DNA from: Octopus sinensis
Taxonomy: Eukaryota
Length of the DNA stretch: 64,000 bases
Direction: 5' to 3'
Assembly (NCBI RefSeq): GCF_006345805.1
Contig: NC_043013.1
Coordinates: forward strand, 42,222,001-42,286,000
The translations under genes and the position numbers were made by a program. This document shows, in pieces, positions 11,175 to 57,293 of this stretch. The notes below the pieces were generated by a model. It made no database searches, had not been told where the DNA came from, and saw only the letters and a list, made by a program, of their open reading frames with translations. Positions within the stretch are counted from its first letter, which is position 1. Each line of letters starts with the position of its first letter.

Positions 11175-11563
11175 TATTTCGGAATGGTCATATTGCCAGT
11201 TTAAACGTATATATATATATATGTGTGTGTATGTGTCTTTGTGTCTGTGTTTGTCTCCACCACCACCACCACCCCTTGACAACTGGTACTGGTAGGTAAC
11301 TCAGCAGTTCAGCAAAAGAGATTGATAGAATAAGTACTAGGCTTACAAATTCCTGAGGTCAATTTGTTCAACTAAAAGCCTTTAAGGCAATGCTCCAGCA
11401 TGGCCACCGTCAAATGACTGAAACAAGTAAAAGAATAACAGAATATATAAAATAAGTTTGAATTTATATGTCTGACTGTATGCTTGTGTGTGTGTGTGTA
11501 CCAACTGGATCAACTCCATATTATCATTAATCATGTGTTGATAATTTTTCTTATTTGTTTCAG

Positions 11564-11692
11564 GTAATGACACAGGAATGTACTTTGGATGTTTCCGGGA
11601 CTCCCGTGCCAAAAGGGAGCTGGGAGGGCATCATAAGGATTTCCCAGAAACCAACTCACCTTCTGTGTGCATTGCTCACTGCTTACAAGCCG
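11564..11692 (+). CDS. oxt: Xylosyltransferase exon A (WSC domain, N-terminal half)
   Basis: Acceptor tttgtttcag|GT and donor G|gtaact; 129 nt, phase 1-1. Translates NDTGMYFGCFRDSRAKRELGGHHKDFPETNSPSVCIAHCLQA(G), matching the WSC-type YxGCFxD...CxxxC pattern. Splices in frame to exon B. Confidence 0.9.
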
Positions 11693-13220
11693 GTAACTAT
11701 GACAACCATTCTTCTTTTATATGACTGTAATCACTTCTACTCATTACTGTAGAGATACATGGCTTAGTGGTTAGAGTGTTAGATTCTTCATCATAAGATC
11801 ATGGTTTCGATTCCAGGCCTGGACAACACTTTTTTTTCTTAAGAAAACCACTTCATTTCATGTTGTTCTACTCCACTCAGCTGGTAAAAATAAGTATTCC
11901 TGTGAAATAAAAGAATAAGAGAGAGAAACAGAGAAAAACAAAAGAGTAAAAAGATCGTATAGTGTGCACATCAGAATTATTCAGATAAAACTTACTTGGA
12001 AGAGGGTGCGTGGTGTTCAACCATATAATAATATAAATAATATATATATAAAGGGGTAAAGACCCCCTTCGGTCATGAATGACCATGGGATTGCACCTAG
12101 AAAGTTACCCTCCTAGACACAAGTCCGGGCAAGGTTGTTTATGGAAGACCAGCAGTCGCCCATGCATACCAGCCTCCCCTCTCCACGCCACCAGTGTTAT
12201 CCAAGGGAAAGACAAAGGTCGATACAGCTTGGCACCAGTGACGTCGCAACTCATTTCTACAGCTGAGTGAACTGGAGCAACGTGAAATAAAGTGCCTTGC
12301 TCAAGAACACAACACGCAGCCCAGTCTGGGATTCGAGCTCACAACCTCACGATCGTAAGCTCGACGCTCTAACCACTGAGCCATATATATATACACATAC
12401 ATATATATATACATACTTACGTCAATATGTATAATATATATATAGACATATATATGTGAAGGTGCATGACTCTGGTTAGATGGTCGGGCTCACAATCACG
12501 ACCAGGCTGTTTTGTGTTCCTAAGCAAGACACTTTGTTTGAGGTTGCTCCAGTTCACTCATCTGTAGAGATTAATTGTGACGTCACTGGTGCAAAGCTGT
12601 ATCGGCCCTTTTGCCTTTTCCTTGGATAACATCAGTGGTGTGGGGAGGGGAGGCTGGTATGCATGGGTGACTGCTGGCCTTCCATAAACAACCTTGCCTG
12701 GACTTGTGCCTCAGAGAGGAGCTTTCTAGGTGTAACTCATAGTCATTCATCACTGAAGGGGGTTTTTACCCTTTATAGACATCTAAAAAGTGGGGAATTG
12801 AAAGTGATACAGCAGTGCTTTAAAAGCAACGTGCCTGATGAAGTGCCAGTATGCAAGTTGTTGGTGTATGATTAATTTACGTAATTATTTATAAAATAAT
12901 TTATGTAATGGTATGAGACTGAAAACTCAGCACAACACAGAAACAAATGTAATTTGTAATTAAAACATGTTCATTCCATCTTCTTGTATAAATTTGTGTG
13001 TGTGTGTTCTTTTTCCCACCTTCACTGCTTAACAACTGATGTTGGTTTGTTCTCATACTTGTAACTTAGCAGTTCAGCAAACGAAAACCAATAGAATAAG
13101 CTCCAATCATAAAACATTAGCACTGAGGTTGATTTGTCCAACTGCCCCAGCACAGCTATAATCCAGTGATTAAAACGAGCAAGGTGTAAAAGATAAAATG
13201 ATGATGATGATACAGTCGTT

Positions 13221-14654
13221 AGTTAGTTAGTTAGTTAATTTGGCTCAAAAGCAAATAGCAAGGCCATGTAGGGGGTCATGGAGTTAAGTACAGGGTGGTG
13301 TTCATGTAAAGAGTTCAGGCCACTTGAGGTCCAGGGAGGCTTTGAACAAAGCGGTCGTCGGCATCTTCACCATCTCGTCTGGCAGCTTGTTCCACGGATC
13401 CGCAACCCGGACGGAGAAAGCTCCTCTCCTTCGATTGAGATGAAATCGTCGCAGGTAGAGCTTTTTGGAATGACCCCGCAGCCGACGCTCCGGAGCAGGA
13501 GTGAAGAACAGCTCTTTCGAGAGGTTACACTTCCCGCTTATGATGATGTGGGCGAGAATGAGATCACCACGGCGGCGGCGTTTTTCAAGAGAATAAAGGT
13601 CGAGCGTCCTCAGCCTTTCTTCGTAGGACAAATTTTTGAGACCATGAACCACGCGGGTAGCCAGCCTCTGGACTCTTTCGAGGTGCTGTATGTCTTTGAG
13701 GAGATAAGGAGAAGAGGCTTGAATCCCATACTCCAATATGGGTCTCACCAGCGTGACATAGAGTGGCAGGAATATGGCTGCTGTGAGCATTCCGAATGAC
13801 CGTCGAATCAAAAACAGAATTACGCGCGCTTTGTTGGCAGCATGGACGCACTGGGCCGAAGGCGAAAAGGAGGAATCCACCAAGATACCCAGGTCCTTTA
13901 CCTGATCGGTCCTCTCCAGCAGCAGACGACCCGGCTCGAAATCAAGTTGAGTTGCAGGAGTAGAGCCGACAGGCAGATGACAGCACTTTGACACGTTCAG
14001 ACACAGGTCCCAATCGTTAGACCACTTCCAAATTTGGTGGAGGCATCGACGAAGATCCTCTATACTACCGCGAGGAGCGACCAGTTTGATATCGTCGGCA
14101 AATAGAAGGGTGTGTTGCGTGAGGTCGTCGGGCAAGTCATTTATGAAGACTAAGAACAACAAGGGCCCAAGCACTGAACCTTGAGGCACGCCACTGCTCG
14201 CACTGGAGACGTCGGACCGTGAACCATTAACTTGAACTTGGAAGGAGCGATCTGAGAGGAAGGCACCAACCCATCGTACAATATCCGGATGGAAACTATA
14301 TGCTTGAAGCTTGACAAATAGTAGGCGGTGGTTTACCGAGTCAAAAGCTTTGGCAAAGTCCAATAAAACGATGTCAACAGCATCACTATCATCGAGGATG
14401 CGCGTCACCAATTCTTCCATTACTAGTAAGTTGGTCAAGCATGATCTCTTCGGCACGAAGCCGTGTTGGGAATCAGTGATCGAGGCTGTGTTTAGGAGGT
14501 GGAGCATCATACTTTTCTTAAGGATGATTTCGAACATCTTGCTGATTATTGATGTAAGGGAAACCGGTCGGTAGTTAAGCGGGTCTTCGCGGCTCCCTTT
14601 CTTGAAAATTGGGCAGATTATCGCTGTTCTCCAGTCTGCAGGTATAACACCCGT
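13221..14654 (-). mobile_element. 5'-truncated CR1-clade LINE with uninterrupted RT and C-terminal ORF
   Basis: Open frame from 14654 (TGVIPADWRTAIICPIFKKGSREDPLNYRPVSLTS) to the stop at 13302. Motifs QHGF, LDFAKAFDSV, GVPQGSVLGPLLF, FADD and LERVQRLATR. Short 3' UTR and (TAAC)n tail at ~13221-13237. Confidence 0.93.
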
Positions 14655-14690
14655 GTTTGTGTATGTGTGAGAGAGAGAGAGAGAGATCTA

Positions 14691-15283
14691 CAGTTGCGGC
14701 CGAAATGTTCAGAATGGCATTGTTTTTGTCAGAAAAGTAGGTATAATTTTTATCAAAGTTGTTTTATATTCTATAATTTTCACAGACAATAAATACGATA
14801 TTAATTGTTATTGTCTGAGATTTTAGTGTAATTTGAAAGGATAATACAAAAGTTATGGATGATTTAGTGATTTACTGCAAAACCTATGGCAGCCAAAATG
14901 ATCAAAACGGTTGAAAAAATAACAAAATAATCAAAAATGACAGAGAATACTGGAATTATTTAATATTTAGTGTGAAGCCCTTTAGCTTCAATCACACTTT
15001 GACATCTTCGACTGCATGAGGAAATTAAATTTTCAATTTCTTGCTGGGTGATCTTATTCCATTCTTCCTGAAGGGCATTCCATAATTGCTCGGTTGATTT
15101 AGGATTTCTGGCTTTCGAACGTTCTCCTAGAATATTCCACACATTTTCAATAGGATTGAGATCTGGGCTTTGATCAGGCCAATCCATAACAATAACCTTT
15201 TCAGCCTTGAGGAAGTTCATGACCACCTTATACCTACTTTTCTGATGAAAACAATGCCGTTCTGAACATTTTGGCCGCAACTG
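14691..15283 (-). mobile_element. Internally deleted Tc1-family DNA transposon
   Basis: ~55-bp TIRs (cagttgcggccgaaatgttcagaa / ttctgaacattttggccgcaactg) flanked by TA. Retains the C-terminus WPDQSPDLNPIENVW...GLHTKY*. Confidence 0.92.
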
Positions 15284-15839
15284 TATACAATATTTAAGCT
15301 ATATTTATGTGTATTGTATGCTTAATGGAAAAAGTGCCATCTACTCTTTATATGTACACACATTTATCATCCACTTTTCCATGCTTGCATTAGTCAAACA
15401 GAATTTCTAGAAGCTGGATGCCCTTCCTGTCAACAACCCTGACCTATTTCCAAGCAAGGTGGTATATTTCCCAGTCGACTGGAAATGAATGACATCACTT
15501 GTTTCGGTGGTTCTCGTTTACAAATTTCGTTTCTATTTTTGACTCAAGGCCAGGAGTTTCGGCGGGGAGTGGGGTAAGTTGATTACACTAACCTCCAGTA
15601 TTTACTGGTACTTATTTTATTGAACCCGAAAGGATGAAAGGCAAAGTCAACCACAGCGGGATTTGAACTCAAGACGTAAAGCCGGACAAAACATCACCAA
15701 GCATTTTGCCTAAGATGCTAACAACTCTGCCAGCTCACCACCTGAAGCTCATCTATGAATATTAAACAATGTGAAGATATGGGAGATACAAACACACACA
15801 TGCATACATACGCACACACACACACTTCTATATATATGT

Positions 15840-16326
15840 GCAGTGTGCAAGAGAGGAGACTGTGCTGGTTTGGTCATGTAATGTGGATGGATGAGGACAG
15901 TTGCATAGAGAAGTGCTGATCACTTAAAGTGGAGGGAAGTTGTGGAAGAGGATGGCTCAGGAAGACATGGGACGAAGTGTTGAAGGCCAGCCTCAAAGCT
16001 CTGAGCCTTACCAAGAAGATGGCAGAGGACTGAGGTATGTGGCACTTTGCTGTACTCAAGAAGATTGGCCCTATACAACAGAATTGATATCCTAAAGCCA
16101 CAGGGCCACGTAAAAAGCAATGGTGTACTTGCTGGTGCCATGTTAAAAGCACCCAGCACACACTATGGAGTGGTTGGCATTAGGAAGGGCATGTAGCTGT
16201 AGAAACCAAGCCAAAACAGATTATGGAGTCTTGTGCGGCCTCTGGCCTTGCCAGCTCCTGTCAAGCCATCCACCTGTGTCAGCATGGAAAACAGATGTTA
16301 AATGTTAAAGATGATGGTGATGATGA
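15840..16326 (+). mobile_element. RTE LINE 3' end with 3' UTR and (GAT)n tail
   Basis: RRLCWFGHV...GRGW.RKTW, followed by the module aaaagcaccc...ggcattaggaagggc and gatgatg. Confidence 0.75.
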
Positions 16327-18967
16327 TATTCAATAGGCTTCTTTTAAGTTTCCATTTCTCAAATCCACTTATAAGACTTTAGTCACCACTAAGCTATAGT
16401 AGAAGACAGCTGCTCAAGGTGCCATTCAGTGGGACTGAACCCATAACTATGTGGTTAAGAAGTAAACTTTTTAATATCACACAGCCATGCCTTACTCTAC
16501 TCTTTTACTTGTTTCAGTCATTTGACTGTGGCCATGCTGGAGCGCCGCCTTTAGTCAAGCAAATCAACCCCAGGACTTATTCCTTGTAAGCCTAGTACTT
16601 ATTCTATTGGTCTCTTTTGCCGAACCACTAAGTTACGGGGACGTAAACATACCAGTATCAGTTGAGGAAACGAACACAGACACACACACACATATATACG
16701 ACAGGCTTCTTTCAGTTTCCGTCTACCAAATCCACTCACAAGGCCTTGGTCGGCCTGAGGCTATAGTAGAAGACATTTGCCCAAGATGCCACGCAGTGAA
16801 ACTGAACCCGGAACTATGTGGTTGTTAGCATGCCACTCCTACGCCTACACAGCTACTCCTACGCCTTCTTTATATCTTTCTCTGCTTTCCTTCTGCACTT
16901 CCATCACTAATCAGAAGATTATGGTAAACTTTTGGAAATGACTTGATTTAAATCAAAGTTAAATCTAAGATGTGTATAACTAGCAGGTGGTACGATAGCA
17001 TTAGAGATTAATGAAATAACAGATATAACAAGAGTACATAACAACACTATTTCACAGCCCTGAGTGGATGAAGGTTTCATAACCCTCTAGCATTCAGATT
17101 ACTCTGTCGAATGTTATGCTTATTTATTCATACTGTTTTGAATTAAGACTCTTGCTTCTCACAATATAGAAACATTTCTCATGGCACCAGCAGATGACAT
17201 GGTAAAAGCATTGCTCTGGGGGATAGCGAAAGAGTCATGCTGGAACAGCCACTCTGATTCACAGGGTTCACACTTGCAGACAACAATCTCTGCCCCGATC
17301 GTAGTGAGCAGGGATATGGTCCATGGGACCAAGAATGCCAGAGGTCTCACCTGTCATAGACTCAATTATAAGCCTGTCAGAGAGCGACGACATGATCGTA
17401 TATTTTTTGGATGACATTGTAAGGGAAGTGTGAAAGGTCAGATCTGGCCAGTTTGAACATAAAGCAGGTAGGTTATTTGGACCAGATATGGCCAGTTTAA
17501 ATGCTGAAGGGTTAAGAGAAAAATAGCTCAAAATTCATATAAATTAACTATTTTCATACCAGTTTCATCTCAGGGTGCTGAGAGTCAGAGTAAATACTGC
17601 AAGTCGTTCCAACCAAACACCTCTAACTCTGCCAATTTGCTGCTTTTAATTATTTAATTTTTTGATTATTTTATTAGACCTTACCAAACTTACGATTATC
17701 TTTATTGCTTGTCTTTTACTTGTGTCAGTCATTAGACTGCCACCATGCTGGGGCATCACTTTGAAGAATTTTAGTCGAATAAATCAATCCCAGGACTTAG
17801 ATTCCATTTTTTACAAAGCTTGGTACTTACTCTTTTAGACTCTTTTGCAAACTGTTATCACTGTGGTAGGAAAGACTTGCTCAAGGTGCTTATACAGTGA
17901 GACTAAATCCAAAACCATGTGGTTGCAAAATAAGATTCTTAACTACACACTCATTCCTGCACTATACACACAAACACACACATATACATATATGTGTGTG
18001 TGTGTGTATATATATATGTCATCATCATCATCATTTAATGTCCGATTTCCATGCTGGCATAGGTTGGACGGTTTGACTGAGGTCTGGAGAGCCAGCAGCT
18101 GCACTAGGTTCCAATCTGATCTGGCAATGTTTCTACAGCTGTATGCTCTTCTTAATACAAACCACTCTGAGAGTGTAGTGGGTGCTTTTTACGTACCACC
18201 GGTATGGGAGCCAGTCAGGGTGTACTGGCATTGGCCACATTCGGATGTTGCTTTTTACATACCACCGGTATGGGAGCCACTCAGGGTACTGGCATCAGCC
18301 ACATTCGGATGGTGCTTTTTATGTACCACCAGTATCGGAGCCAGTCAGGGGGTACTGGCACCAGCCACATTCGGATGGTGCTCTTTATGTGCCACTGGCA
18401 AAGTGGCCAGTTAGGGGGTACTTGCATCAGCCACATTCAGATGGGTTTTTTTACATGCCACACATACATACATGTATATACACACACACCAAGCCAAAAC
18501 AGATTATGGAGTCACACAACCATATACGTACCTCCTCTATGGTGAGACACCTTTTTCTACTTCTGTGTCTCTCTGTCACAGTCTAACCTTTCATCATCTG
18601 ATGCAAGATCACCTCCTTCAATGCCCTACTACTCTTTCAAAGATTCCTTGTCTTGCAAGTTACTTGGCAACCCTACCAGTGCTGGTGCCACGTTAAAGGC
18701 ATCCAGTCCACATTGTGAAGTGTTTAGCATTCGGAAGGGCATCTGGTTGTAAAAACCATACCAAAACTGACCTCGCCTGTGCTGGTGCCACGTAAAAAGC
18801 ACTCAGTCCACTCTGCTGGGTGGTTGGTGTTAGGAAGGGCATCCAGCTGTAAAAACCCTGGCAAAACAAACAAAGAAGACTGGTGTAGTCTTCTGCCTGG
18901 CCGGCTCCTATCAAACCATGCCAGCATGGAAGGTGAATATTAAACAATAATGATGATGATATAGATA

Positions 18968-19438
18968 CAAGGTGCTTATTAAGCCCTGGTAAGACAGAAT
19001 ATGCAATAGAAGGCCATATGTATTTCAGTAAGACTCTGCACTATCACACATGGCTCTAGTAACACAGGAATGGATAGCTGAAAATGTTCATGGTCACATA
19101 ACTCCTAACATTTGGGCCCCCTAATTCCCCAGATCTCAATCTATTGGACTATTACATGTGGAGCGTTGTTGAGAGAGAAGTCAATGAACACGTCCATAAC
19201 ACCAAAGATTCTTTGAAAGCTGTCAGAGTCAGAGTAACGTCCAGAATGAACTAGGACCACTTGATTCGAGCATGTAGATGATTTAGATCTCATTTAGAAG
19301 CAGTTGAAGCTGAAGGTGGCTTTATTGAATCACATTATAGAAAAAAATCCTCAGCATTTTTGGATAAATTCATTATCTGTTATTATATGATTTTTTTTAA
19401 TAAACATAAATCTGTCCTCAAATATCTTATGCACCCTG
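18968..19438 (+). mobile_element. Deleted Tc1/mariner-superfamily element (DD37D/maT-like)
   Basis: Ends TA-caaggtgc ... gcaccctg-TA. Decayed translation QxDSAxSH...TQEW...IW.PNSPDLN.LDYYMW...EAEGGFIE. Confidence 0.75.
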
Positions 19439-19697
19439 TATGTATGTATGTATATATATATATAATATATATATATATATATACTACATATATGTGTGTG
19501 TGTGTGTATAAGATCTTTTGAAGAAAAGATTGGAATTCATCCATGCATGCAAGTCCCCTTTCTCCATGCCACTAATGTTTATTTAACAGAAAGGATGCCA
19601 GACATTTGGTTAAGGCCATGCTGGAGCACATACTGATCACGAAAACCCCCAAAAAATCCCAAAATAACTTGATTCTTTGATGCTTTATTTATTTCAG

Positions 19698-19865
19698 GTT
19701 TTCAATATGCTGGAGTACAGTATACGAAAGAATGCTGGTGTGGGGACGAATATGGCAAATATGGTCTCTTAGCAGATATTCATTGTTCAAATCACTGTCC
19801 ACAGAACAGCACGGAAACATGTGGGGGTTTCCTTGCTATGAGGGTGTTTAGCACCGGACTTGGAG
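19698..19865 (+). CDS. oxt: Xylosyltransferase exon B (WSC domain, C-terminal half)
   Basis: Acceptor atttcag|GT and donor G|gtaagt; 168 nt, phase 1-1. Translates GFQYAGVQYTKECWCGDEYGKYGLLADIHCSNHCPQNSTETCGGFLAMRVFSTGLG, with the WSC motifs YAG.Q...ECWCG and CP...E.CGG. Confidence 0.93.
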
Positions 19866-20589
19866 GTAAGTTGGCACAAATTGTTTGCTTATTTCCAACT
19901 TCTCTTCTTTCTCCTTCCCTTCATCTTCTCCCTTTCTTCTTCTTATTATTATTATTATTAAGGCAATGAACTGGCAGGATTGTTAGCATACCATGACCCC
20001 TGGGAGTTCACATAACATTTTGTTGCAAAAATTTGTGTAAAATATTGATTATGTTTCTAAAATACATAGAATTTTTTCACAATTTTTTAAATGCAATTCC
20101 TAATAGTATTTAATTATATAAATACTTTTTACTCGTTACTCTTTTACTTGTTTCAGTCATTTGACTGTGGCCATGCTGGAGCACTGCCTTTAGTCGAGCA
20201 AATAGACCCCGGGACTTATTCTTTGTAAGCCTAGTACTTACTCTATCAGTTTCTTTTGCCAAACTGCTAAGTTATGGGGACATAAACTCACCAGCATCGG
20301 TTGTCAAGCGATGTTGGGGGGACAAACACAGACACACATATATATATACATATATACAACAGGCTTCTTTCAGTTTCCATCTACCAAATCCACTTACAAG
20401 GCTTTGGTCAGTCCGAGGCTATAGTAGAAGACACTGGCCCAAGGTACCACACAGTGGGACTGAACCCGGAACCATGCGGTTGGTAAGTAAGCTACTTACC
20501 ACACAGCCACCCCTACGCTTACTATAGGATTTTTTGAACATGGAAAAGTTATGAGGGTCCAGTCAAAAGGGTCCATAGGAAAAAAATGG

Positions 20590-31188: not shown

Positions 31189-34100
31189 CTCTACACTCTG
31201 TGTTTGACTTTCTTCCTTGGTAGAATGATAAAAAGATTGAAAGAATAAATACCAAATTCCCAGTCATCAATGATGATAATGATATAGAACAAGCTTTCAC
31301 ACAGTTTCCATTTCCCAAATTCACTCACAAAGGTTACTGGTCAGCCCAGGGCTATTTTAAAAAGCACTTGCCTGAAGTGCCACTGCGCAGTGAGACTGAA
31401 CCTGAAACCACGTGGCTGCAAATCCAGCTTCTTAACTTTTACTTATCTATTTATGGTTAACTACGAACCTCTAAATTAATTATCAGTTCCCAGCGGGTGT
31501 TCATTGTGCTGCTGTAATTAAGTTCATTCATTCAGTCATTCATTCATGTAATGAAGTAGTCCAGTTGATCTATCAGGCTTGTACGACATATGCTCACTTT
31601 GGGGCGCTAAAAAAAAGAGAAATCCTAAATGTCACAAACTCGGTGAAATGTCACCTGAAGAAGCGCCAGCATGGTGAGGTGGTGGTGGTGGAGGTGGGGT
31701 GATAGGTCGGAAGCAAGGGATGAGGGTCGGTTGGATGTTTTAGCTAATGATTGCTATATAAACAGTGAACTCTTATGCAGGGAAATCTATACACATGCAC
31801 ACACACACACACATATATATATAAATTCTATGTTGAAAATATGTGGCTCAACAATACAAACATGATACACACAAACACACACACACACACTTGTATATGT
31901 GTATGTATGCATATGTATATAATATATATATATATATATATACACACACAAATATTCATGTGTATATATATGTACACACACAAATATTCGTGTGTGTATA
32001 TATATATACCAGGCCACTGGTATTTATAGAGTATTAAACACTTCCAGTATGCAAATTAAGGATCCTTCATAGAGTAACTGCTGCATTTGTTAAGTATATA
32101 AGCAGTTTGGCTGCTTGTTTCTCTGGAGATTGTCAGAATGATGTGGACGCCCCTGATGGGAACCCAATAAGGTTTGAAAATTGATTAAAGTTGTTTATCA
32201 TTTTCTCAGTCTGTGGAGAAATGACTAAAATTTGCCGTTTATAATTACATCATATGTTGCGTGTGTATATATATATATATATATGTGTGTGTGTATCTAT
32301 CTATGTCTGTCTCCCACCACCATTTGACAACTGGTGTTGGTTTGTTTGCAGCTACATAACTTAGCAGTTTGGCAAAAGAGACTGATAGCATAAGTACTAG
32401 GCTTTAAAAAAATAAGTTTGACTAAAACCCTTCAAGGTAGTGCTCCAGAACGGCCTTTGTCAAATGACTGTAACAAATAAAAGAATAACATTTTTTTAAT
32501 TGTTTTTTACAAGAATAGTATAATATGCAGTGTATTTTTAGCATTTTTCTTTAAGATTACAGGGTGTGACATGAGGGATTTTTTACTGTTATTTCTAGTA
32601 GGCCATGCGACCATGCAGAGGCATACTCTGTTATTAGGGTTGTTTTAGATTCTGGTAATATGATGATACACCAAGTAAATATTACAACAATTGACAATAG
32701 CTATCCCCAACAGAAACTGAATCCCTTTGAAATATCCATTTCAGAAGAGGAAATCATTATTATATAAAACCATTGTCAACTCTCCTAACATACTTGTGTA
32801 TGTGTGCACACGCACACACACTTACAAACTGACAGATATGAACTCTTTGTCTGTGAAGCCAGGAACGATTTCTTCACAGAGATATATAGCTATCATCATC
32901 GTTGTCATCATCGTTTAACATCTGCTTTCCATGCTGGCATGGGTTGGATGGTTTGACTGAGGGTTGGCGAGCCAGAAGGCTGCACCAGGCCATCTGCACA
33001 ATCCCATCTGGTAGAGTTTCTACAGTTGGATGCCCTTCCTAATGCCAACCACTCGGAGAGTGTAGTGGGTGCTTTTACGTGCCACCAGCACAAGGGCCAG
33101 TCAGGCAGTACTGGCATCAGCCACGCTCAGATGGGGCTTTTTATGTGCCACTCGCACAGGAGCCAGTCAGGCAGAGCTAGCAATGACCACGATTATATAT
33201 ATATATATATATATATGGGAAGAGAGAGTGAGGGATGAAAAATGCTCTGTCATTAAGAAGTCATTATTTACACTTGATGGATATTTATCCACCTTGTTTG
33301 TTGTTAACACAACGTTTCATCTGATATACCCTCCAGCCTTCATATCACATTCTAGTGTTGAAAAAAGAAAAATATGGAAGAACTATTGACTAATGGTACA
33401 GATATGGTTGTGGGGTAAAATGTTTGCTTCCCAACCACATGGTTTCAGGTTCAGTCTTAATGCATGGCACCTATGGAAAGTGTCTTCTACTTCAATCTTG
33501 AGTCAACCAGAGCTTTCCGAGTGGATTTGGTAGGTGGAAACTGAAAGAAACCCATCATCATCATCGTTTAACGTCTGCTTTCCATGCTAGCATGAGTTGG
33601 ATGATTTGACTGAGGACAGAGGCTGCACCAGGCTCCAATCTGATCTGGCAAAGTTTTTACAGCTAGATGCCCTTCCTAATGCCAACTACTCCGAGAGTGT
33701 AGTGGGTGCTTTTACGTGACACCATCACGAGGGCTAGTCAGGTGGTTCTAGCAAAGGCCACACTCAAATGGTGCTTTTTTACATGCTACCTGCACGGGAG
33801 CCAGTCCGGCGGCACTTGCAATGACCACACTCGAATGTTATTTTACACGTGCCACCAGCACATGTGCCAGTATGGTGACTCTGGCAACGATCACGCATGA
33901 ATGGTGCCTTTCATATGCCACCGGCACGGGAGCCAATCTGTGGTCTTGGCAACGATCACGCTTAGATGTGCTTTTAACATTCCACTGGCATGAGTGCCAA
34001 TCAGGCGGTACTGTCATCAGCTATGTCAGCAATTTTGATTTGTTTATATAAATATATATATATTGTATGTGTGTGTATATGTATGCATATATTTATGTAT

Positions 34101-34630
34101 ATATGGATATGCATGTGTGAATATATGTATGTATATATATGGATATATATGTATATGTTTATATATCCGTATGTATATTTATGTGTGACCATGCCTGTAC
34201 ACTTGTGCATGATTTCTTATTTCCCTTTGTGTTCTCTGGTTGTAAACAATGGCCGTGCTCTCCTTTTTGCTGTCTTCCACAAAAGCACATCCAGTCTTAA
34301 TGGGCTGTGCTTTCATTACACAATTTTTGCAAACAAAAATGGTTTATTTATATTCGTATTGCATCAGCTGTTTCCAAGTTTTCCATGTCACCATGTCCAG
34401 GCTGTTTGTAATTCAACAGATTATGACCTTGAATCGAAACAAGTGTGGCGGGGATGGAGATGTTGACATCAAGAAGGGCAACGTGCTGTTGAAAATTCTG
34501 TCCCAATATCCTCTCACCTGACACATGAACACCTGGGGAAATGGACATTAAAATGATGATGATAACAATAACAATGATATGATGATGATGGTGGTGGTGG
34601 CAACACTGATGATGATGATAATGACAATTG

Positions 34631-34666
<36 letters not shown>

Positions 34667-34889
34667 ATTAATCAATATAGGGGCACAAAAATTTTGTAGA
34701 ATTTTTTTGCCACCAGCGGCCTAGTGGGAAAAAATTAAATAGTCAAAGACCATTTTTAAGTTCAACATCAACATCAAGGAACGGCCATAATAGGCCATTC
34801 ACCCACTAGAAATAACAGCCAAGCTTCAACCGCAAATAAAAATCAATTCCGTAAACCAGGAGAAAATTTAAAAAACATTTACCCTGTAA

Positions 34890-34992
34890 TTTCTTATACG
34901 ATGCACCGTTTCATCTGCTGTTTAATGGTAAACTAACCTGATTAAATTAAATCAAGCCAATCTTCCATAGGCCCTCATTCTTCAGTAAGAAA
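34890..34992 (-). ncRNA. Hammerhead ribozyme, array unit 1 (2-nt deletion in stem II)
   Basis: + strand reads ctcattcttcag versus ctcagattcttcag. Core, stem I and stem III are intact. Confidence 0.6.
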
Positions 34993-35376
34993 TAGCCAAG
35001 TCGGAACAGATATTTTCACGAGGCATTTCCGACCCTGCCAAGGCAATATCTGACCTAAAATTTTCAAATCATCGCACTCGCGCCAAATTTATCGGCAGCA
35101 AATAAATATAAGCCGTCGATTCCATTACGGAATTAACCAGAAAATTCATAATTAATCAATATAGGGTGGCACAAAAATTTTGTGGAATTTTTTTGCCACC
35201 AGCGGCCTAGTGGGAAAAAATTAAATAGTCAAAGACCATTTTTAAGTTCAACATCAACAATCAAGGAACGGCCATAATAGGCCATTCACCCACTAGAAAT
35301 AACAGCCAAAGCTTCAACCGCAAATAAAAATCAATTCCGTAAACCAGGAAAAATTTAAAAAACATTTACCCTGTAA

Positions 35377-35480
35377 TTTCTTATACGATGCACCGTTTCA
35401 TCTGCTGTTTAATGGTAAACTAACCTGATTAAATTAAATCGAGCCAATCTTCCATAGGCCCTCAGATCTTCAGTAAGAAA
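35377..35480 (-). ncRNA. Hammerhead ribozyme, array unit 2 (1-nt deletion at the core/stem II junction)
   Basis: + strand reads cagatcttcag versus cagattcttcag in intact copies; core and stems otherwise the same. The difference may be sequencing error. Confidence 0.65.
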
Positions 35481-35862
35481 TAGCCAAGTCGGAACAGATA
35501 TTTTCACGAGGCATTTCCGACCCTGCCAAGCAATCTGACCTAAAATTTTCAAATCATCGCACTCGCGCCAAATTTATCGGCAGCAAATAAATATAAGCCG
35601 TCGATTCCATTACGGAATTAACCAGAAAATTCATAATTAATCATATAGGTGGGGCACAAAAATTTTGTAGAATTTTTTTGCCACCAGCGGCCTAGTGGGA
35701 AAAAATTAAATAGTCAAAGACCATTTTTAAGTTCAACACACAACAATCAAGAACGGCCATAATAGGCCATTCACCCACTAGAAATAACAGCCAAAGCTTC
35801 AACCGCAAATAAAAATCAATTCCGTAAACCAGGAGAAAATTTAAAAAACATTTACCCTGTAA

Positions 35863-35966
35863 TTTCTTATACGATGCACCGTTTCATCTGCTGTTTAATG
35901 GTAAACTAACCTGATTAAATTAAATCAAGCCATCTTCCATAGGCCCTCAGATTCTTCAGTAAGAAA
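35863..35966 (-). ncRNA. Type I hammerhead ribozyme (intact, array unit 3)
   Basis: Reverse complement of the 36324-36428 motif with all core nucleotides and stems present. Confidence 0.82.
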
Positions 35967-36323
35967 TAGCCAAGTCGGAACAGATATTTTCACGAGGCAT
36001 TTCCGACCCTGCCAAGGCAATATCTGACCTAAATTTTCAAATCATCGCACTCGCGCCAAATTTATCGGCAGCAAATAAATATAAGCCGTCGATTCCATTT
36101 TTTCCCCTAGGTGGCCCTGGTGGCAAAAAAATTCTACAAAATTTTTGTGCCACCCTATATTGATTAATTATGAATTTTCTGGTTAATTCCGTAATGGAAT
36201 CGACGGCTTATATTTATTTGCTGCCGATAAATTGGCGCGAGTGCGATGATTTGAAATTTTAGGTCAGATATTGCCTTGGCAGGGTCGGAAATGCCTCGTG
36301 AAAAATCTGTTCCGACTTGGCTA

Positions 36324-36428
36324 TTTCTTACTGAAGAATCTGAGGGCCTATGGAAGATTGGCTTGATTTAATTTAATCAGGTTAGTTTACCATTAAACAG
36401 CAGATGAAACGGTGCATCGTATAAGAAA
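36324..36428 (+). ncRNA. Type I hammerhead ribozyme (intact)
   Basis: Stem I UUUCUUA/UAAGAAA; core CUGAAGA at 36331-36337; stem II AUCUG/CAGAU enclosing 58 nt; GAAA at 36406-36409; near-palindromic stem III CGGUGCAUCG; GUA triplet, with cleavage predicted after 36421. Confidence 0.85.
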
Positions 36429-37094
36429 TTACAGATGTTTTTTTAATTTTCTCCTGGTTTACGGAATTGATTTTTATTTGCGGTTGAAGCTTGGCTGTTA
36501 TTTCTAGTGGGTGAATGGCCTATTATGGCCGTTCCTTGATTGTTGATATATATATATATATATTTATATTATTCTTTACTTTCTCTAAGTTAAAGAAATT
36601 TCAGATATGTTTTTCACAGAAATTTTAAACAACAACTGCAACACCATCTTCATCATTGTTGTTTATATCTAATAAAAATGGCTTCTTCTTTCTTCAGCAT
36701 AGAAACATCAGTAGGTTTCATTTACAAAGGGTTAAGACATAAACAACCATTGAATTAGAAATTCTTCGGTTATATATTTATTTTTCTTGAACAATATTCC
36801 ATCTAGAGAGACTGCAGCTAAAACAATAACTCTTGAAATCCTAACACTCATAAGAAAAGTATTATGTGACAGATAAATATTTGTTCATATAATGATATCC
36901 ATTAAGTAAAAAAAAACTTAAAAAACACATTTTTTAAAACTACATGTGGGGTCTGAAGTACTATTAATTTGAAGTGATACTATTGTGTTTTGTACAAGAA
37001 AGGAGAAAATATAAAAATGGAAGGGAGAAAACAATTTAGGAAAATGACTCTCTGAATGGTTTCTATCTTCTGGTTCTCTTCCTATACATATATA

Positions 37095-37141
<47 letters not shown>

Positions 37142-37158
37142 GTATATATGTGTGTGTG

Positions 37159-37202
<44 letters not shown>

Positions 37203-37748
37203 ATAATCATCGACATCCTTTAACATCCCTTTTTCCCAACTGGTATACATACATATGCACAGACACAAGCAGACACGCACATATAAACATACGTGTGCAT
37301 ATATTTATACATACATAAACGTGTGTGGATGTGTGTGTGTGTATACATAGTGAAATTCAATGACTGAATAACTAAATAACATTAGCTCGTACAAAACAAT
37401 TGAGGCTGATTTGTGGATATATACATGTGTTTATATGTGTGGCAATACATAGCTATGTATGTATACATATATATGTGCACTTACACACATGCACACACAC
37501 ATGTATATAGTATATACATGCATGTATGTATTGGTGCAGTTAGTATATATACTTGGTAATTGAACAAATCCTCTAGAGGCAGAGATAAATTTTATAAATC
37601 TAGAATTTATTGTATGGTACTTGATAAACCTGTATTTGTGTGTGCTATTCATGTGTTTCTCTCTAAACACTCTGAACTATATCTCTGAGCTCATTTATTG
37701 CTTTAATATTATATATCAATACATAGTTATCTGAGTACATATGCATGT

Positions 37749-37779
<31 letters not shown>

Positions 37780-37846
37780 ATATATATACATACCAGAGTA
37801 AGCACATAAATGCGAAACAAGGTGGAAAAAATACTCCTTGAATACT

Positions 37847-38000
37847 TTTATTAAAAAGCAGCACAAATATCGCAAAACTGTTACTCAGAGTTTCACATTC
37901 CCATTCGTTGGGCAGTTTTGTTTAGACAAAACTGTCTGACCAGCATGAACGTGAAACTCTGAGTAACAGTTTTGCGATATTTGTGCTGCTTTTTAATAAA
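37847..38000. mobile_element. Inverted pair of pLTR-like fragments, each with a decayed hammerhead
   Basis: ~75-bp arms forming a palindrome. The + arm reads AAAACUGU-CUGACCA-GCAUGAACGU-GAAA-CUCUGAG-UA-ACAGUUUU; the - arm core is CCAACGA. Followed by (TA)n. Confidence 0.7.
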
Positions 38001-38002
38001 GC

Positions 38003-38048
<46 letters not shown>

Positions 38049-39058
38049 CCTCCTTCTCTCCTTCCTTCCTGAGTGTCCAATAATACTATATTTGTTCCAC
38101 GTCCTCGCATTGTTGTGTTTTCTCTGTGTTTTCATGTTTGGATTAACTATATATATATATATATGAATATATGTGTGTGTGTGTGTACATATATACAATA
38201 GGTGTGGTTGTGGTTCTTTGTGCACTCACACTGCATGGTACCTCCAAGAAGTGTCTATTACTACAGCCTTGGATTGATCAAAGCCTTGTAAGTGGATCTG
38301 GTAGATGGAAACTGAAAAAAGCCCATTTGTGCCTATGTTTGTTACTCACTTTCTATAGAAAGACAAAATAGACAAAACAAAACAGGAAAAGACACATGGG
38401 ATGGAGAGTTGCTCAAGAGGTCACAGTTCATATGACAAAAGACATAAAATACGAACAATAATAAGATAAGTCTGAAGTGAAAAACGTATACATTCATCAT
38501 CATCATCATCATCATCATCGTTTAGCGTCCGTTTTCCATGCTAGCATGGGTTGGACGGTTCTACTGGGGTCTGTGAAGCCAGAAGGCTTCATCAGGCCCA
38601 GTCAAATCTGGCAGTGTTTCTACAGCTGGATGCCCTTCCTAACGCCAACCACTCCGTGAGTGTAGTGGGTGCTTTTACGTGCCACCCGCACTGGTGCCAG
38701 ACAGAGCTGGCAAACGGCCACGAACGGATGGTGCTTTTTATGTGCCACCGGCACGAGGGCCAGGTGAGGCTGGCAATGGACACGAAACGGGGCGGTGCTG
38801 GCAACGGTCACGAAACGGAAAGTTCTCTTACATGCCACCGGCACTGGTAACACATCTGCAATTTCCATTGATCGATTTCGATTCTCACTTGCCTCAACGG
38901 GTCTTCACAAGCAGAGTTTCGACATGCCACCGGCACTGGTAGCACATCCGCAATTTCCATTGATCGATTTCGATTCTGATCCTCACTTGCCTCAACACGT
39001 CTGCGTGTGTATATTTGGCAAAAGACAAAAAATGACTATCCCAAAATATAACAAATTG

Positions 39059-46473: not shown

Positions 46474-46726
46474 ATAATTAATCAATATAGGGTGGCAAAA
46501 AAAATTATGTAGAATTTTTTTTGCCACCAGCGGCCTAGTGGGAAAAAATTAAATAGTCATAGACCATTTTTAAGTTCAACATCAACAATCAAGGAACGGC
46601 CATAATAGGCCATTCACCCACTAGAAATAACAGCCAAAGCTTCAACCGCAAATAAAAATCAATTCCGTAAACAGGAGAAAATTTAAAAAACATTTACCCT
46701 GTAATTTCTTATACGATGCACCGTTT
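46474..46726 (-). mobile_element. Dispersed truncated copy of the 485-bp hammerhead element
   Basis: Near-identical to the first ~250 bp of the array unit. Starts at the same ataattaatc terminus after (TA)n and ends inside the hammerhead (…tacgatgcaccgttt), followed by atatat. Confidence 0.9.
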
Positions 46727-54446: not shown

Positions 54447-54596
54447 TATATGTACACATACGCGGATGTATTATATATGTTTTTGCCTCTCTGTTTTATC
54501 CGTAAAAGTCTGTGGGTCTGTCTGTTTGTCAGTATGTCTCCTAGAAACCCCGCTTCTGCTTTGTCTTAACCATTTTATTCTGTTACATTTTCGCAG

Positions 54597-54799
54597 CGTC
54601 AAGAATTTCTGCAGAGAGAGATGTTGGAGTTGGCCAAAAAGTTCCCGAATATGTATGTTACCCACAACCGGTTACCCACGATCTGGGGTGGTGCTAGTTT
54701 ATTACAGGCCCACCTGAACATAATGACGGAGTTACTGGCAAAGACCAACTGGAAGTGGGACTACTACGTGAATCTCAGTGAATCAGATTACCCTATCAA
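54597..54799 (+). CDS. oxt: Xylosyltransferase exon D
   Basis: Acceptor tttcgcag|CGT and donor AA|gttagt; 203 nt, phase 0-2. Translates RQEFLQREMLELAKKFPNMYVTHNRLPTIWGGASLLQAHLNIMTELLAKTNWKWDYYVNLSESDYPIK, with the TIWGGASLL and NLSxxDYP motifs. Confidence 0.95.
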
Positions 54800-55276
54800 G
54801 TTAGTCTTTTCATTTCATTTAATGTTTAGCCTTTTTTTAATAGCTTTTCTTTTGTAACTTCTTTAACGATCATCATCATCATTGTCATAACCATCTTCAT
54901 CACCAACATCATAACTGTCATCGTCATCATTGTCATTATCATGACTGACATTCTAAGACAGAAATTGGGAGACTAATAGTTGCTGCTTCTAATCTTGCTA
55001 TATTGATGTGGACAAACCTACCCAGAAGAACATTGGGGTGGATCTATTGGGACTTCAACCCTAGCCAGTGTAGTGACATTCTACCAGACCACCTGGTGCC
55101 AAGGGAGGCTCAATTGGAATTCCACCCTTAGCCAGTAACATTCTACAGAACTACCTAGCTGCAACAGAGTTGGACATACCCATCTCTTAAGCTTCTTGAT
55201 GCTGGCTTATATACTTTGAGTAGATTGTCTGCCACACTGAAATTTCTGTTACAGTTATTCCAATTATATAATTTTA

Positions 55277-55810
55277 GAAAATTATTATTTTAAAATCTCA
55301 TAATGTGAGATATTCAGTAACAGTACTTTGTAGTAAAGGTTGTTTGCCAACATAACATGGCAGTCCTGGTTTAGGACTAATCTTGCTGTAATTTCACCCC
55401 AGTAGACATCACTACCCGCTGGCTATACGACACAATCTGTGTCTTTATATTTTCGAACAAGGGAATCTAGCACCCCTATTCAGCTCAAAACAATATCTGT
55501 GTATCACGATTTCTAGGTTATTTTCTTTCATCAGCTCAGAATAATTGTTCAGCTAGAGGTTGTGCTGCCAAATTCCCGTTCAAAATATATAGTTTGCAAA
55601 GTGACAACTAGTCACTGATTTATAAATTAGGAAAATTACTATTTTAAAATCTCACAGCGTGAGATAGTCAGCAACAGTACTTTGTAGTAAAGATTGTTTG
55701 CCAGCATAACATGGCAGTCCTGGTTCAGGACTAATGTTGCTGTAATTTAGACATCGTCTCCAGCTGGCTATACGACAGACATGATCTGTGTCCTTATACT
55801 TTCGAACAGG
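55277..55810. repeat. Partial tandem repeat with ~354-bp period
   Basis: gaaaatta.tattttaaaatctca...cagtactttgtagtaaag...catggcagtcctggtt.aggactaat at 55277 and 55631. Confidence 0.8.
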
Positions 55811-55977
55811 GAAATAATTTTATATCACATCTAGCTTCTTTATTTTTTTTTTCCGTTGCCTTCAATAATTTCATCAACTCTACTTACATGTTATGTATTA
55901 TATTTTCCCCTCTTTAACCTGTGTTTGTTTCTTCTATATATATATATATATATATTTTTTTTTTTTTCCTAATCTAG

Positions 55978-56058
55978 GAAACTGGAAGAACTTGTGGCCT
56001 TTTTAACCAAATACAAAACATACAATTTTCTAAAAACACATGGCAGAGATACACCAAG
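55978..56058 (+). CDS. oxt: Xylosyltransferase exon E
   Basis: Poly-T tract, acceptor ctag|G and donor AG|gtgagt; 81 nt, phase 2-2. Translates KLEELVAFLTKYKTYNFLKTHGRDTPR, matching LVAFL...NFLK.HG. Confidence 0.93.
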
Positions 56059-56938
56059 GTGAGTAATCCTGCCTCTAATTATTTATGTTTTTGTATGATC
56101 GAGATCTTCCTCAGGTAGGTATCTGCTGTTTTTATGAAACCTCACATCAATAAAAACCAAGCTGCTATTGGCCTGGGCTTTAGTCAGCCCTGAGCTGAGT
56201 AGAAAATGCGGATTCGATGTGCCATGCAATAGGACTGAATCCAAAATCATTTTGTTTGGAAGTGAGCTTCTTAACCACATAGCTATACCTGCACCCCACA
56301 GTCGTGACTACCACATTACACTACTGCACAACAGCCTATACAACATGTCTTGATTCTCGTACTATACTCTAGAAAGGATATTATGTCTACCACACTAAAG
56401 CCCATATGTGTTCTAACTCCACCAATATTGCTGTCATTATTGACCCAACACCGACCACAATCACCACTACTACTATCACTGCTACAACCATCGCCAGCAT
56501 CACAACCACAACTACCATCACCACCACTGCTACTACTACTACCACCACCACCAATATCATAACCACAACTACCATCACCACCACTACTACTGTCACCACC
56601 ATCACCAACACTACTACTGTCACCACCATCACCAACACTACTACCAAGGCTGCCAACATCACAACCACTATTACCACTACCATCATCACAGCCACTACTA
56701 CTATCATCGTCACCACTACCATCACAATCATCATCACCACCACCACCCCACTGCTACCATCATCACAGCCACTACTACCATCATCAACATCACAACCATC
56801 ATCACCACCACCCCACTGCCACCATCATCACAACCACTACTACCACCATCACAACCACCACCATCAACACAACCACTTCCACTACTACCATCACTACAAC
56901 AAAACTAGTCTCACACCTCTCTGACCATAATCTTCCAG

Positions 56939-57155
56939 GTTTATTCAAAAACAAGGTTTGGACCAGACGTTCTTCGAATGCGAGAATCACTTATGGCGTG
57001 TTGGACCACGGAACATTCCAGAAGGTATCCGGGTTGACGGAGGAAGCGACTGGATCGGCATTCATCGGAACTTCTGTGAATATATCATTAAATCTGAAGA
57101 CAAACTTGTCCTGGGATTGAAACGGGTCTATGAATTTACACTTCTACCTGCCGAG
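56939..57155 (+). CDS. oxt: Xylosyltransferase exon F
   Basis: Acceptor cttccag|G and donor GAG|gtaagt; 217 nt, phase 2-0. Translates FIQKQGLDQTFFECENHLWRVGPRNIPEGIRVDGGSDWIGIHRNFCEYIIKSEDKLVLGLKRVYEFTLLPAE, with KQGLD, DGGSDW and TLLPAE motifs. Confidence 0.95.
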
Positions 57156-57293
57156 GTAAGTTAGCATTCCTGCTCCAGGGACCCTGAAGTAGTTTTATAA
57201 GAATTTTTTTCTTTTTGTGGATGATTGATCTACTAGAAACAACAGTTAAATGTACCAGGAATCATACTCTCCTCCTTCTGCATCTTCTCAGTA

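Follow-up and report, generated by a model that had tools for sequence, protein, structure and literature searches.

The window, a 64,000-nucleotide stretch of the Octopus sinensis genome, contains a two-armed, non-coding tandem element lying in a (TA)n tract, which is found at 34,633–34,659 on its left and at 36,548–36,565 on its right. The B arm (34,660–36,099, ribozyme sense on the minus strand) consists of 2.95 head-to-tail units of about 490 bp and is 5'-truncated at unit position 128. The A arm (36,097–36,547, plus strand) is an inverted 0.93 unit that covers unit positions 33–486 and terminates at a fixed site, site A. The arms meet head to head with an overlap of 3 nt (36,097–36,099). 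A first-pass annotation made from the letters alone had described about three head-to-tail units followed by an inverted one, and this arrangement is borne out by arm mapping and by Tandem Repeats Finder, which gives the array at 34,660–36,099 a period of 485, 3.0 copies, and 96% matches; elsewhere in the genome, the period is mostly 487–492 bp. A one-sided tail of 106–110 nt (34,660–34,767, minus strand) runs from site A to site B and includes a CTAG-hairpin-ACCCT motif common to sister families. Directly before site A lies a CTAG stretch with a hairpin (36,504–36,534, plus strand), and a pairing between this stretch and its CTAG counterpart in the tail is predicted. The unit has a GC content of 37%, and its longest ATG-initiated ORF in a circular reading is 34 aa in sense and 11 aa in antisense, in agreement with the earlier description of an element without an ORF flanked by TA on both sides.

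WSC-domain exons (11,545–19,966) and Branch-domain exons (54,570–57,161), both on the plus strand, bracket the insertion (87 of 140 candidate frames scanned). The insertion thus probably sits in an intron of a gene that we take, from its pair of WSC and Branch domains, to be xylosyltransferase-like, and the one intact predicted hammerhead (36,323–36,429) is in sense orientation to the host pre-mRNA. A second, short copy of the family (46,474–46,725, minus strand), made up of the tail and the 3' part, with its 5' truncation some 12 nt upstream of the cut site, sits in the same putative intron region.

Every unit carries a predicted type I hammerhead ribozyme, as had been claimed, but the motif quoted for all of them is exact only in the inverted unit. 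The intact ribozyme there has its core at 36,331–36,421 on the plus strand, consistent with the cut after 36,421 that had been predicted, and is composed of an 8-bp stem I, a 5-bp stem II extended by an 18-bp hairpin, and a palindromic stem III. Two of the four cores in the window, both on the minus strand, have small indels at stem II, namely a 2-nt deletion (34,897–34,985, predicted cut between 34,897 and 34,896) and a missing A beside the stem (35,384–35,473, predicted cut between 35,384 and 35,383), and a third minus-strand core is 1 nt short in loop II (35,870–35,959, predicted cut between 35,870 and 35,869). Single indels of this type are common across the family copies, and single-base indels may be assembly errors.

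Rfam returned no hammerhead at E ≤ 5 within 33,000–38,500, probably as the 68-nt stem II insert, a long hairpin at the loop 2 position, defeats its hammerhead models. The 116-nt motif folds at z = −3.5, and the compensatory stem conservation sought among genomic copies is present, with five pairs altered on both sides. Four of them lie in stem I and one in stem II, in an alignment of 25 rows, hand-picked from 74 loci for few indels and for diversity, in which 96.3% of the cells are paired. Covariation of five pairs was reached in 1 of 500 shuffles, and slid controls gave 0–2; related rows can inflate such a score, and the rows were chosen to be diverse. The 58-nt loop II contains the 18-bp hairpin, which is 99.6% paired and has one-sided changes only. 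Across 77 loci, N7 is the sole variable position of the 5' core, bar one G8 change, and the core pattern is intact in 214 of the 226 units covering it. The 3' core belonged to the search pattern used for the loci of contig C1; among five loci retrieved via the 5' half, it is intact in four, the fifth being the deletion locus L317. The fold is also retained, with additional compensation, in relatives at 81% and 71% identity.

The ribozyme thus combines a type I topology with a palindromic stem III able to dimerise, and it occurs in tandem rather than singly. Four different stem III sequences were found, all of them self-complementary, with duplex energies of −15 to −19 kcal/mol. As a monomer, stem III closes 4 bp, which sets the ribozyme apart from the minimal type, and the predicted active monomer fold lies 1.5 kcal/mol above the minimum. 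Given these duplex energies and the near-minimum monomer fold, cleavage is plausible both as a monomer and as a dimer. Among the matches listed, the base before the cut is other than A in a few (7 C, 1 T, and 3 G); the C form fills whole arrays, and the G forms are single matches. The impression that the loop II and the unit length are atypical calls for qualification. Long loop II inserts are common among the hammerheads of this genome, and further hammerheads with 43–76-nt stem II inserts and a palindromic stem III occur in the examined DNA. The unit of about 490 bp falls in the 51–972 bp range given by Li et al. 2026 (10.64898/2026.07.22.740005). A mussel retrozyme family is reported to lack most of the nucleotides for loop 1-loop 2 contacts (PMC7229834).

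Exact genome matches numbered 657 for a core 28-mer and 2,339 for a 19-mer of the 3' core, with none for the reversed-pattern control, so the hammerhead repeat is not a chance occurrence; the 5' core pattern gave 2,192 exact matches, again with none for its control. The proposed copy-number search describes a dispersed family. We estimate at least 1,100 insertions, the first 100 of the 3'-core matches listed corresponding to 49 loci. About 90 of these insertions were examined in sequence, comprising 39 of the best-scoring arrays, four more, 40 consecutive loci on contig C1, and nine further ones. The arrays are dispersed and multi-copy, have no LTR pair, and have a unit of a few hundred bp, and several subfamilies hold one common period. 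The unit is also present in contigs of public runs bearing three organism labels; those of X1, X5, X6, and X7 span most of it, which does not amount to evidence of expression. Identical insertions with identical flanks were seen at L167/L168/L169 and at L035/L041 and represent segmental or assembly duplicates; L041, L168, and L169 were left out as segmental duplicates, and L055, L100, and L116 were omitted from the flank analysis.

Among 84 insertion groups, 58 are simple head-to-head inversions, and their outer ends follow a strict rule, with 52 of the 58 pairing a site A end with a site B end, one pairing A with A (one of its ends being eroded), none pairing B with B, and five unscored. Site B lies 103–110 nt (typically 106) beyond site A. 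Inversions examined later were A/B in five of five cases, and the pooled counts (57 A/B versus 1 A/A) give p = 4e-16 against free pairing. TA tracts are found on both flanks in 70 of 78 loci, and no consistent direct flank repeat was seen in the 78 loci, where TA tracts mask target-site duplications. The coding Penelope-like elements (PLEs) of this genome keep the A/B rule in 13 of 13 inverted insertions, with tails of 36–38 nt; 20 stretches were examined for this comparison, the rest being single-armed or of a family left unscored. These local PLEs have intact reverse transcriptase (RT) frames with a C-terminal GIY-YIG domain, 775–883 aa in length, and a CX4CXXC linker. PLEs with a one-sided tail and a (TA)n bias have been described (Craig et al. 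2021, PMC8557442), and for one PLE protein both strands are reported to be cut and extended, with reverse transcription starting at two internal sites bracketing the tail and no difference between the strands (Frangieh 2024, PMC11167929). That the coding PLEs of the genome have this insertion anatomy too supports mobilisation by PLEs, and with it the earlier suggestion of a Penelope RT acting in trans; we are confident that the retrozyme family is a PLE-mobilised non-autonomous element. The strict A/B pairing suggests one start site for each subunit of a dimer. We discarded L1-type twin priming from a single linear RNA, as the 5' ends of the arms are independent of the start of the other arm. 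Insertion at the centres of larger palindromes was found in a few flanks only and is not general; at L056 and L031, the flanks outside the TA tracts are inverted repeats of each other.

The copies also carry information on the template. Units diverge by 0.9% both within an arm and between arms, compared with 2.4% between loci, and variants fixed in one arm are also found in the other in 89 of 101 cases, including five of nine among the private ones (indel-prone columns were excluded from the divergence, core-variation, and shared-variant analyses). The predicted cut site lies 130 nt short of A and 236 nt short of B, and it is passed by 47 of the 52 A arms and by 46 of the 52 B arms, which extend up to about 14 units; arrays of 12–14 near-identical units are present. 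Since most arms run past the cut site, the main template was not a linear monomer but a circle or an uncleaved multimer.

Three loci bear scars at the cut site. In L317, an untargeted find, an identical 48-nt deletion running up to the cut site is present in both units, with 3 nt of microhomology at the junction, and this is the only one of 11 deletions of at least 7 nt to end there (426 aligned pieces, with L317 once per unit). L336 and L328 came from a search confined to the cut site, with 26 matches listed. In L336, about 89 nt are deleted from both units, from just after stem I to the cut site, and in L328, a deletion of about 141 nt ends at the cut site in both arms. Five inversion junctions lie at the cut site, and in L330 both arms end within 2 nt of it. 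The 5' ends of the arms are mostly spread evenly, with a weak excess around the cut site (7 of 116 at a distance of 6 nt or less, against 3.1 expected; p = 0.04). The scars fit a ribozyme-made 5' end that was either joined to a shortened 3' end or reached by the RT as the end of its template, and the cut-site deletions and arm ends may be read as indirect signs of in vivo cleavage and rejoining. A repeated deletion could also arise by tandem duplication after insertion. Both arms of L328 contain a deleted unit and then an intact unit, which requires at least two different consecutive units in the template, so a monomer circle is not the only template. Unit-specific variants are present in both arms of L114 and L044. 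In L114, the outermost unit of both arms has one common variant and the two junction-proximal units have another, a pattern unexplained by a monomer circle.

The tail motif extends well beyond this family, with 8,228 genome matches for CTAG-hairpin-ACCCT versus two in the control. Its CTAG stretch pairs over at least 7 bp with an upstream stretch in 31 of 47 distinct contexts, versus 12.6% in shuffles, and the pairing encloses site A and is compensated between families. The module of CTAG stem and hairpin may therefore serve as a signal that recruits the RT. A 535-bp tandem family comprises 734 candidates at about 99% identity. The loci L103 (6,764–7,875) and L174–L185 hold this very young 535-bp retrozyme family as long arrays with a 51-nt stem II insert and a tail of about 130 nt. 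Other non-coding hammerhead elements in TA tracts were seen at L227, L228, L238, L243, L290, L158, L160, L142, L161, L054, L107, and L230; they have long stem II inserts, several have the tail motif, and several share a conserved block downstream of site B, a possible promoter element. A candidate Pol III B box was rejected, as it varies across subfamilies.

The search for a driver element covered GIY-YIG frames, 20 PLE stretches, a 3' UTR comparison, and a second PLE family and did not find the driver PLE. BLAST detected no similarity of the unit to the sampled PLE loci or ends, none of 80 tail-motif loci (20 + 60) has a PLE frame joined to it, and no coding element among those sampled carries the CTAG-stem/hairpin module. 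The 14 matches to a short-loop hammerhead pattern, designed to retrieve a PLE relative, include none that resembles the unit. One coding PLE family has in common with the retrozyme only a short CACCCT before its B end. The CACCCT/AACCCT word lies 10–18 nt before the B end in this family, its sister families, and the PLE family of L163, and it resembles the reverse complement of the telomere repeat, as in endonuclease-less PLEs. The coding PLEs at L101–L106, L163, and L186–L215 belong to young families that have an overlapping ORF upstream (479 aa in L101); these families bear hammerhead-like cores with a U3-A8 exchange, and one of them forms 4.4-kb tandems. A decayed PLE reverse transcriptase at L275 (2,026–3,035) is 26–31% identical to those of the other families and belongs to a different clade.

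On balance, we consider it probable that the repeat is a non-LTR retrozyme with PLE-type insertion anatomy. Its RNA likely cleaves itself and is then likely ligated again, in many cases to a circle, and a PLE RT/GIY-YIG protein acting in trans likely copies it back into (TA)n tracts. Read-through transcripts would be cut after GUA, either as a monomer or faster as a dimer joined through stem III, and the resulting 5'-OH ends would be ligated. A PLE dimer would then bind the CTAG-stem/hairpin module and nick both strands of a TA tract, and one cDNA would be primed at A and one at B, the outer end of the tail being the second start of reverse transcription, on the same kind of template. Both cDNAs would extend beyond the cut site, over as many as 14 units, before being joined head to head at short microhomologies. 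Cleavage is reported for one of nine predicted retrozymes (Li et al. 2026, 10.64898/2026.07.22.740005), and for the anole PLE, hammerhead mutants are reported to insert in vitro without a drop, with no RNA-seq reads ending at the cut site (PMC11167929).

The latter results bear on a reading in which the element is a PLE parasite copied from linear, mostly uncleaved read-through multimers, with a hammerhead that trims 5' ends or is incidental and circles that play no role. PAc uses unprocessed RNA in vitro (PMC11167929), the L328 template comprised two different units, the arm 5' ends are mostly random, and coding PLEs with variant cores also make tandems of 4.4 kb, all of which such multimers would accommodate. 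They account less well for the covariation of the hammerhead stems within the family and in relatives at 71–81% identity, for the near-identity of the 12–14-unit arrays, and for the deletions at the cut site that recur unchanged from one unit to the next in L317 and L336 and most simply fit a circle, and we regard this reading as unlikely. A lower probability still attaches to the proposal that the repeats are detached pLTRs or 5'-truncated ends of an unsampled ORF-bearing PLE family. It draws on the abundance of PLEs (5,029 GIY-YIG candidates, 150 of them scored), on the 21 Xenopus transposable elements matching retrozyme families that are PLEs (Li et al. 2026, 10.64898/2026.07.22.740005), and on the share of loci examined, about 90 of the at least 1,100 estimated. 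Against it, none of 83 stretches shows the repeat contiguous with an RT/GIY-YIG frame, in line with the first-pass preference for a retrozyme over a pLTR, and the PLE fragments in 11 of the 83 are never contiguous with the repeat. Beyond site B, moreover, the retrozyme continues into the next 490-bp unit, whereas coding PLEs continue into their coding 5' end, and one period is kept by several subfamilies. The two genomic observations named beforehand as speaking against a retrozyme were contiguity with an ORF and a lack of stem covariation, and neither was seen.

An ordinary minisatellite or a TA-tract assembly artefact with a chance hammerhead-like motif might be suspected from the many single-base indels of the assembly and from the local duplication patterns in a few arrays. 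The repeat occurs on many contigs with fixed A and B ends, its stems covary, and the unit recurs in the contigs of runs under three organism labels; the fixed ends and the covariation in the main refute this explanation, which we regard as extremely improbable.

The retrozyme reading places the element within a known kind of repeat. Non-LTR retrozymes are a recognised class of element, for which circles have been demonstrated in coral, mussel, and axolotl (PMC7229834), and vertebrate retrozymes have been tied to pLTRs in a study whose described sampling includes no mollusc (Li, Clavereau and Pollet 2026, 10.64898/2026.07.22.740005). As in the metazoan retrozymes of these two sources, the units are non-coding, low in GC, and arranged in tandem, each with a type I hammerhead, and they occur in thousands of copies alongside PLEs. 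Mussel units are 350–390 bp. The octopus family differs from the metazoan retrozymes described there in the 18-bp hairpin extension of stem II and in its two-armed, PLE-type insertions with a fixed 106-nt tail, followed copy by copy, and, unlike many Xenopus families, it has no similarity to the sampled PLE ends. With canonical EN+ PLEs, which have a Neptune-type linker, it shares partial tandems, an inverted and 5'-truncated partner, a tail at one end, (TA)n targets, and a hammerhead 70–170 nt upstream of the 3' end (PMC8557442, PMC11167929). It departs from them in its lack of an RT/GIY-YIG frame, its period of about 490 bp, and its tail of 106 nt, compared with 30–40 nt in canonical EN+ PLEs and 36–38 nt in the local coding families.

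The suggestion that such a family is undescribed in cephalopods agrees with a literature search whose scope lay outside Repbase, Dfam, and subscription journals and in which no cephalopod retrozyme was found. Cephalopods are absent from the available text of the two retrozyme papers (PMC7229834; Li et al. 2026), and a 2026 repeat annotation of O. vulgaris (PMC13282606) lists active Penelope families, with the words hammerhead, ribozyme, and retrozyme absent from its main text. The family is real, young, and abundant, and it is likely a non-LTR retrozyme of a known kind driven by PLEs. A broader picture, which we find possible but would not yet call probable, is that a whole clade of retrozyme families (about 460–560 bp, with more than 8,000 tail motifs) recruits a PLE dimer through one conserved RNA structure and that its copies are a fossil record of the process, in which each subunit would use its own start site, A or B, to prime one strand on a circle made by the ribozyme and would then travel around it. 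If this is true, the genome itself would be direct evidence for in vivo cleavage by PLE-type hammerheads and for ligated RNA as the template of transposition.

For genome annotation, the gain is more than 1 Mb of ribozyme-bearing repeats, some of them intronic and in sense orientation to the host pre-mRNA, and a compact RNA signal that directs PLE insertion would interest genome-writing work. The value of the family lies in its mechanistic record. Both the mobilisation of animal retrozymes by PLEs and the in vivo role of PLE-type hammerheads appear as open questions in the literature cited here. The young copies keep the PLE signature, the cut-site scars, and a candidate RT-recruiting module conserved across families, so the form of the template, the pairing of start sites, and the need for the ribozyme become testable in assays that combine a short RNA with an intact PLE protein from this genome.
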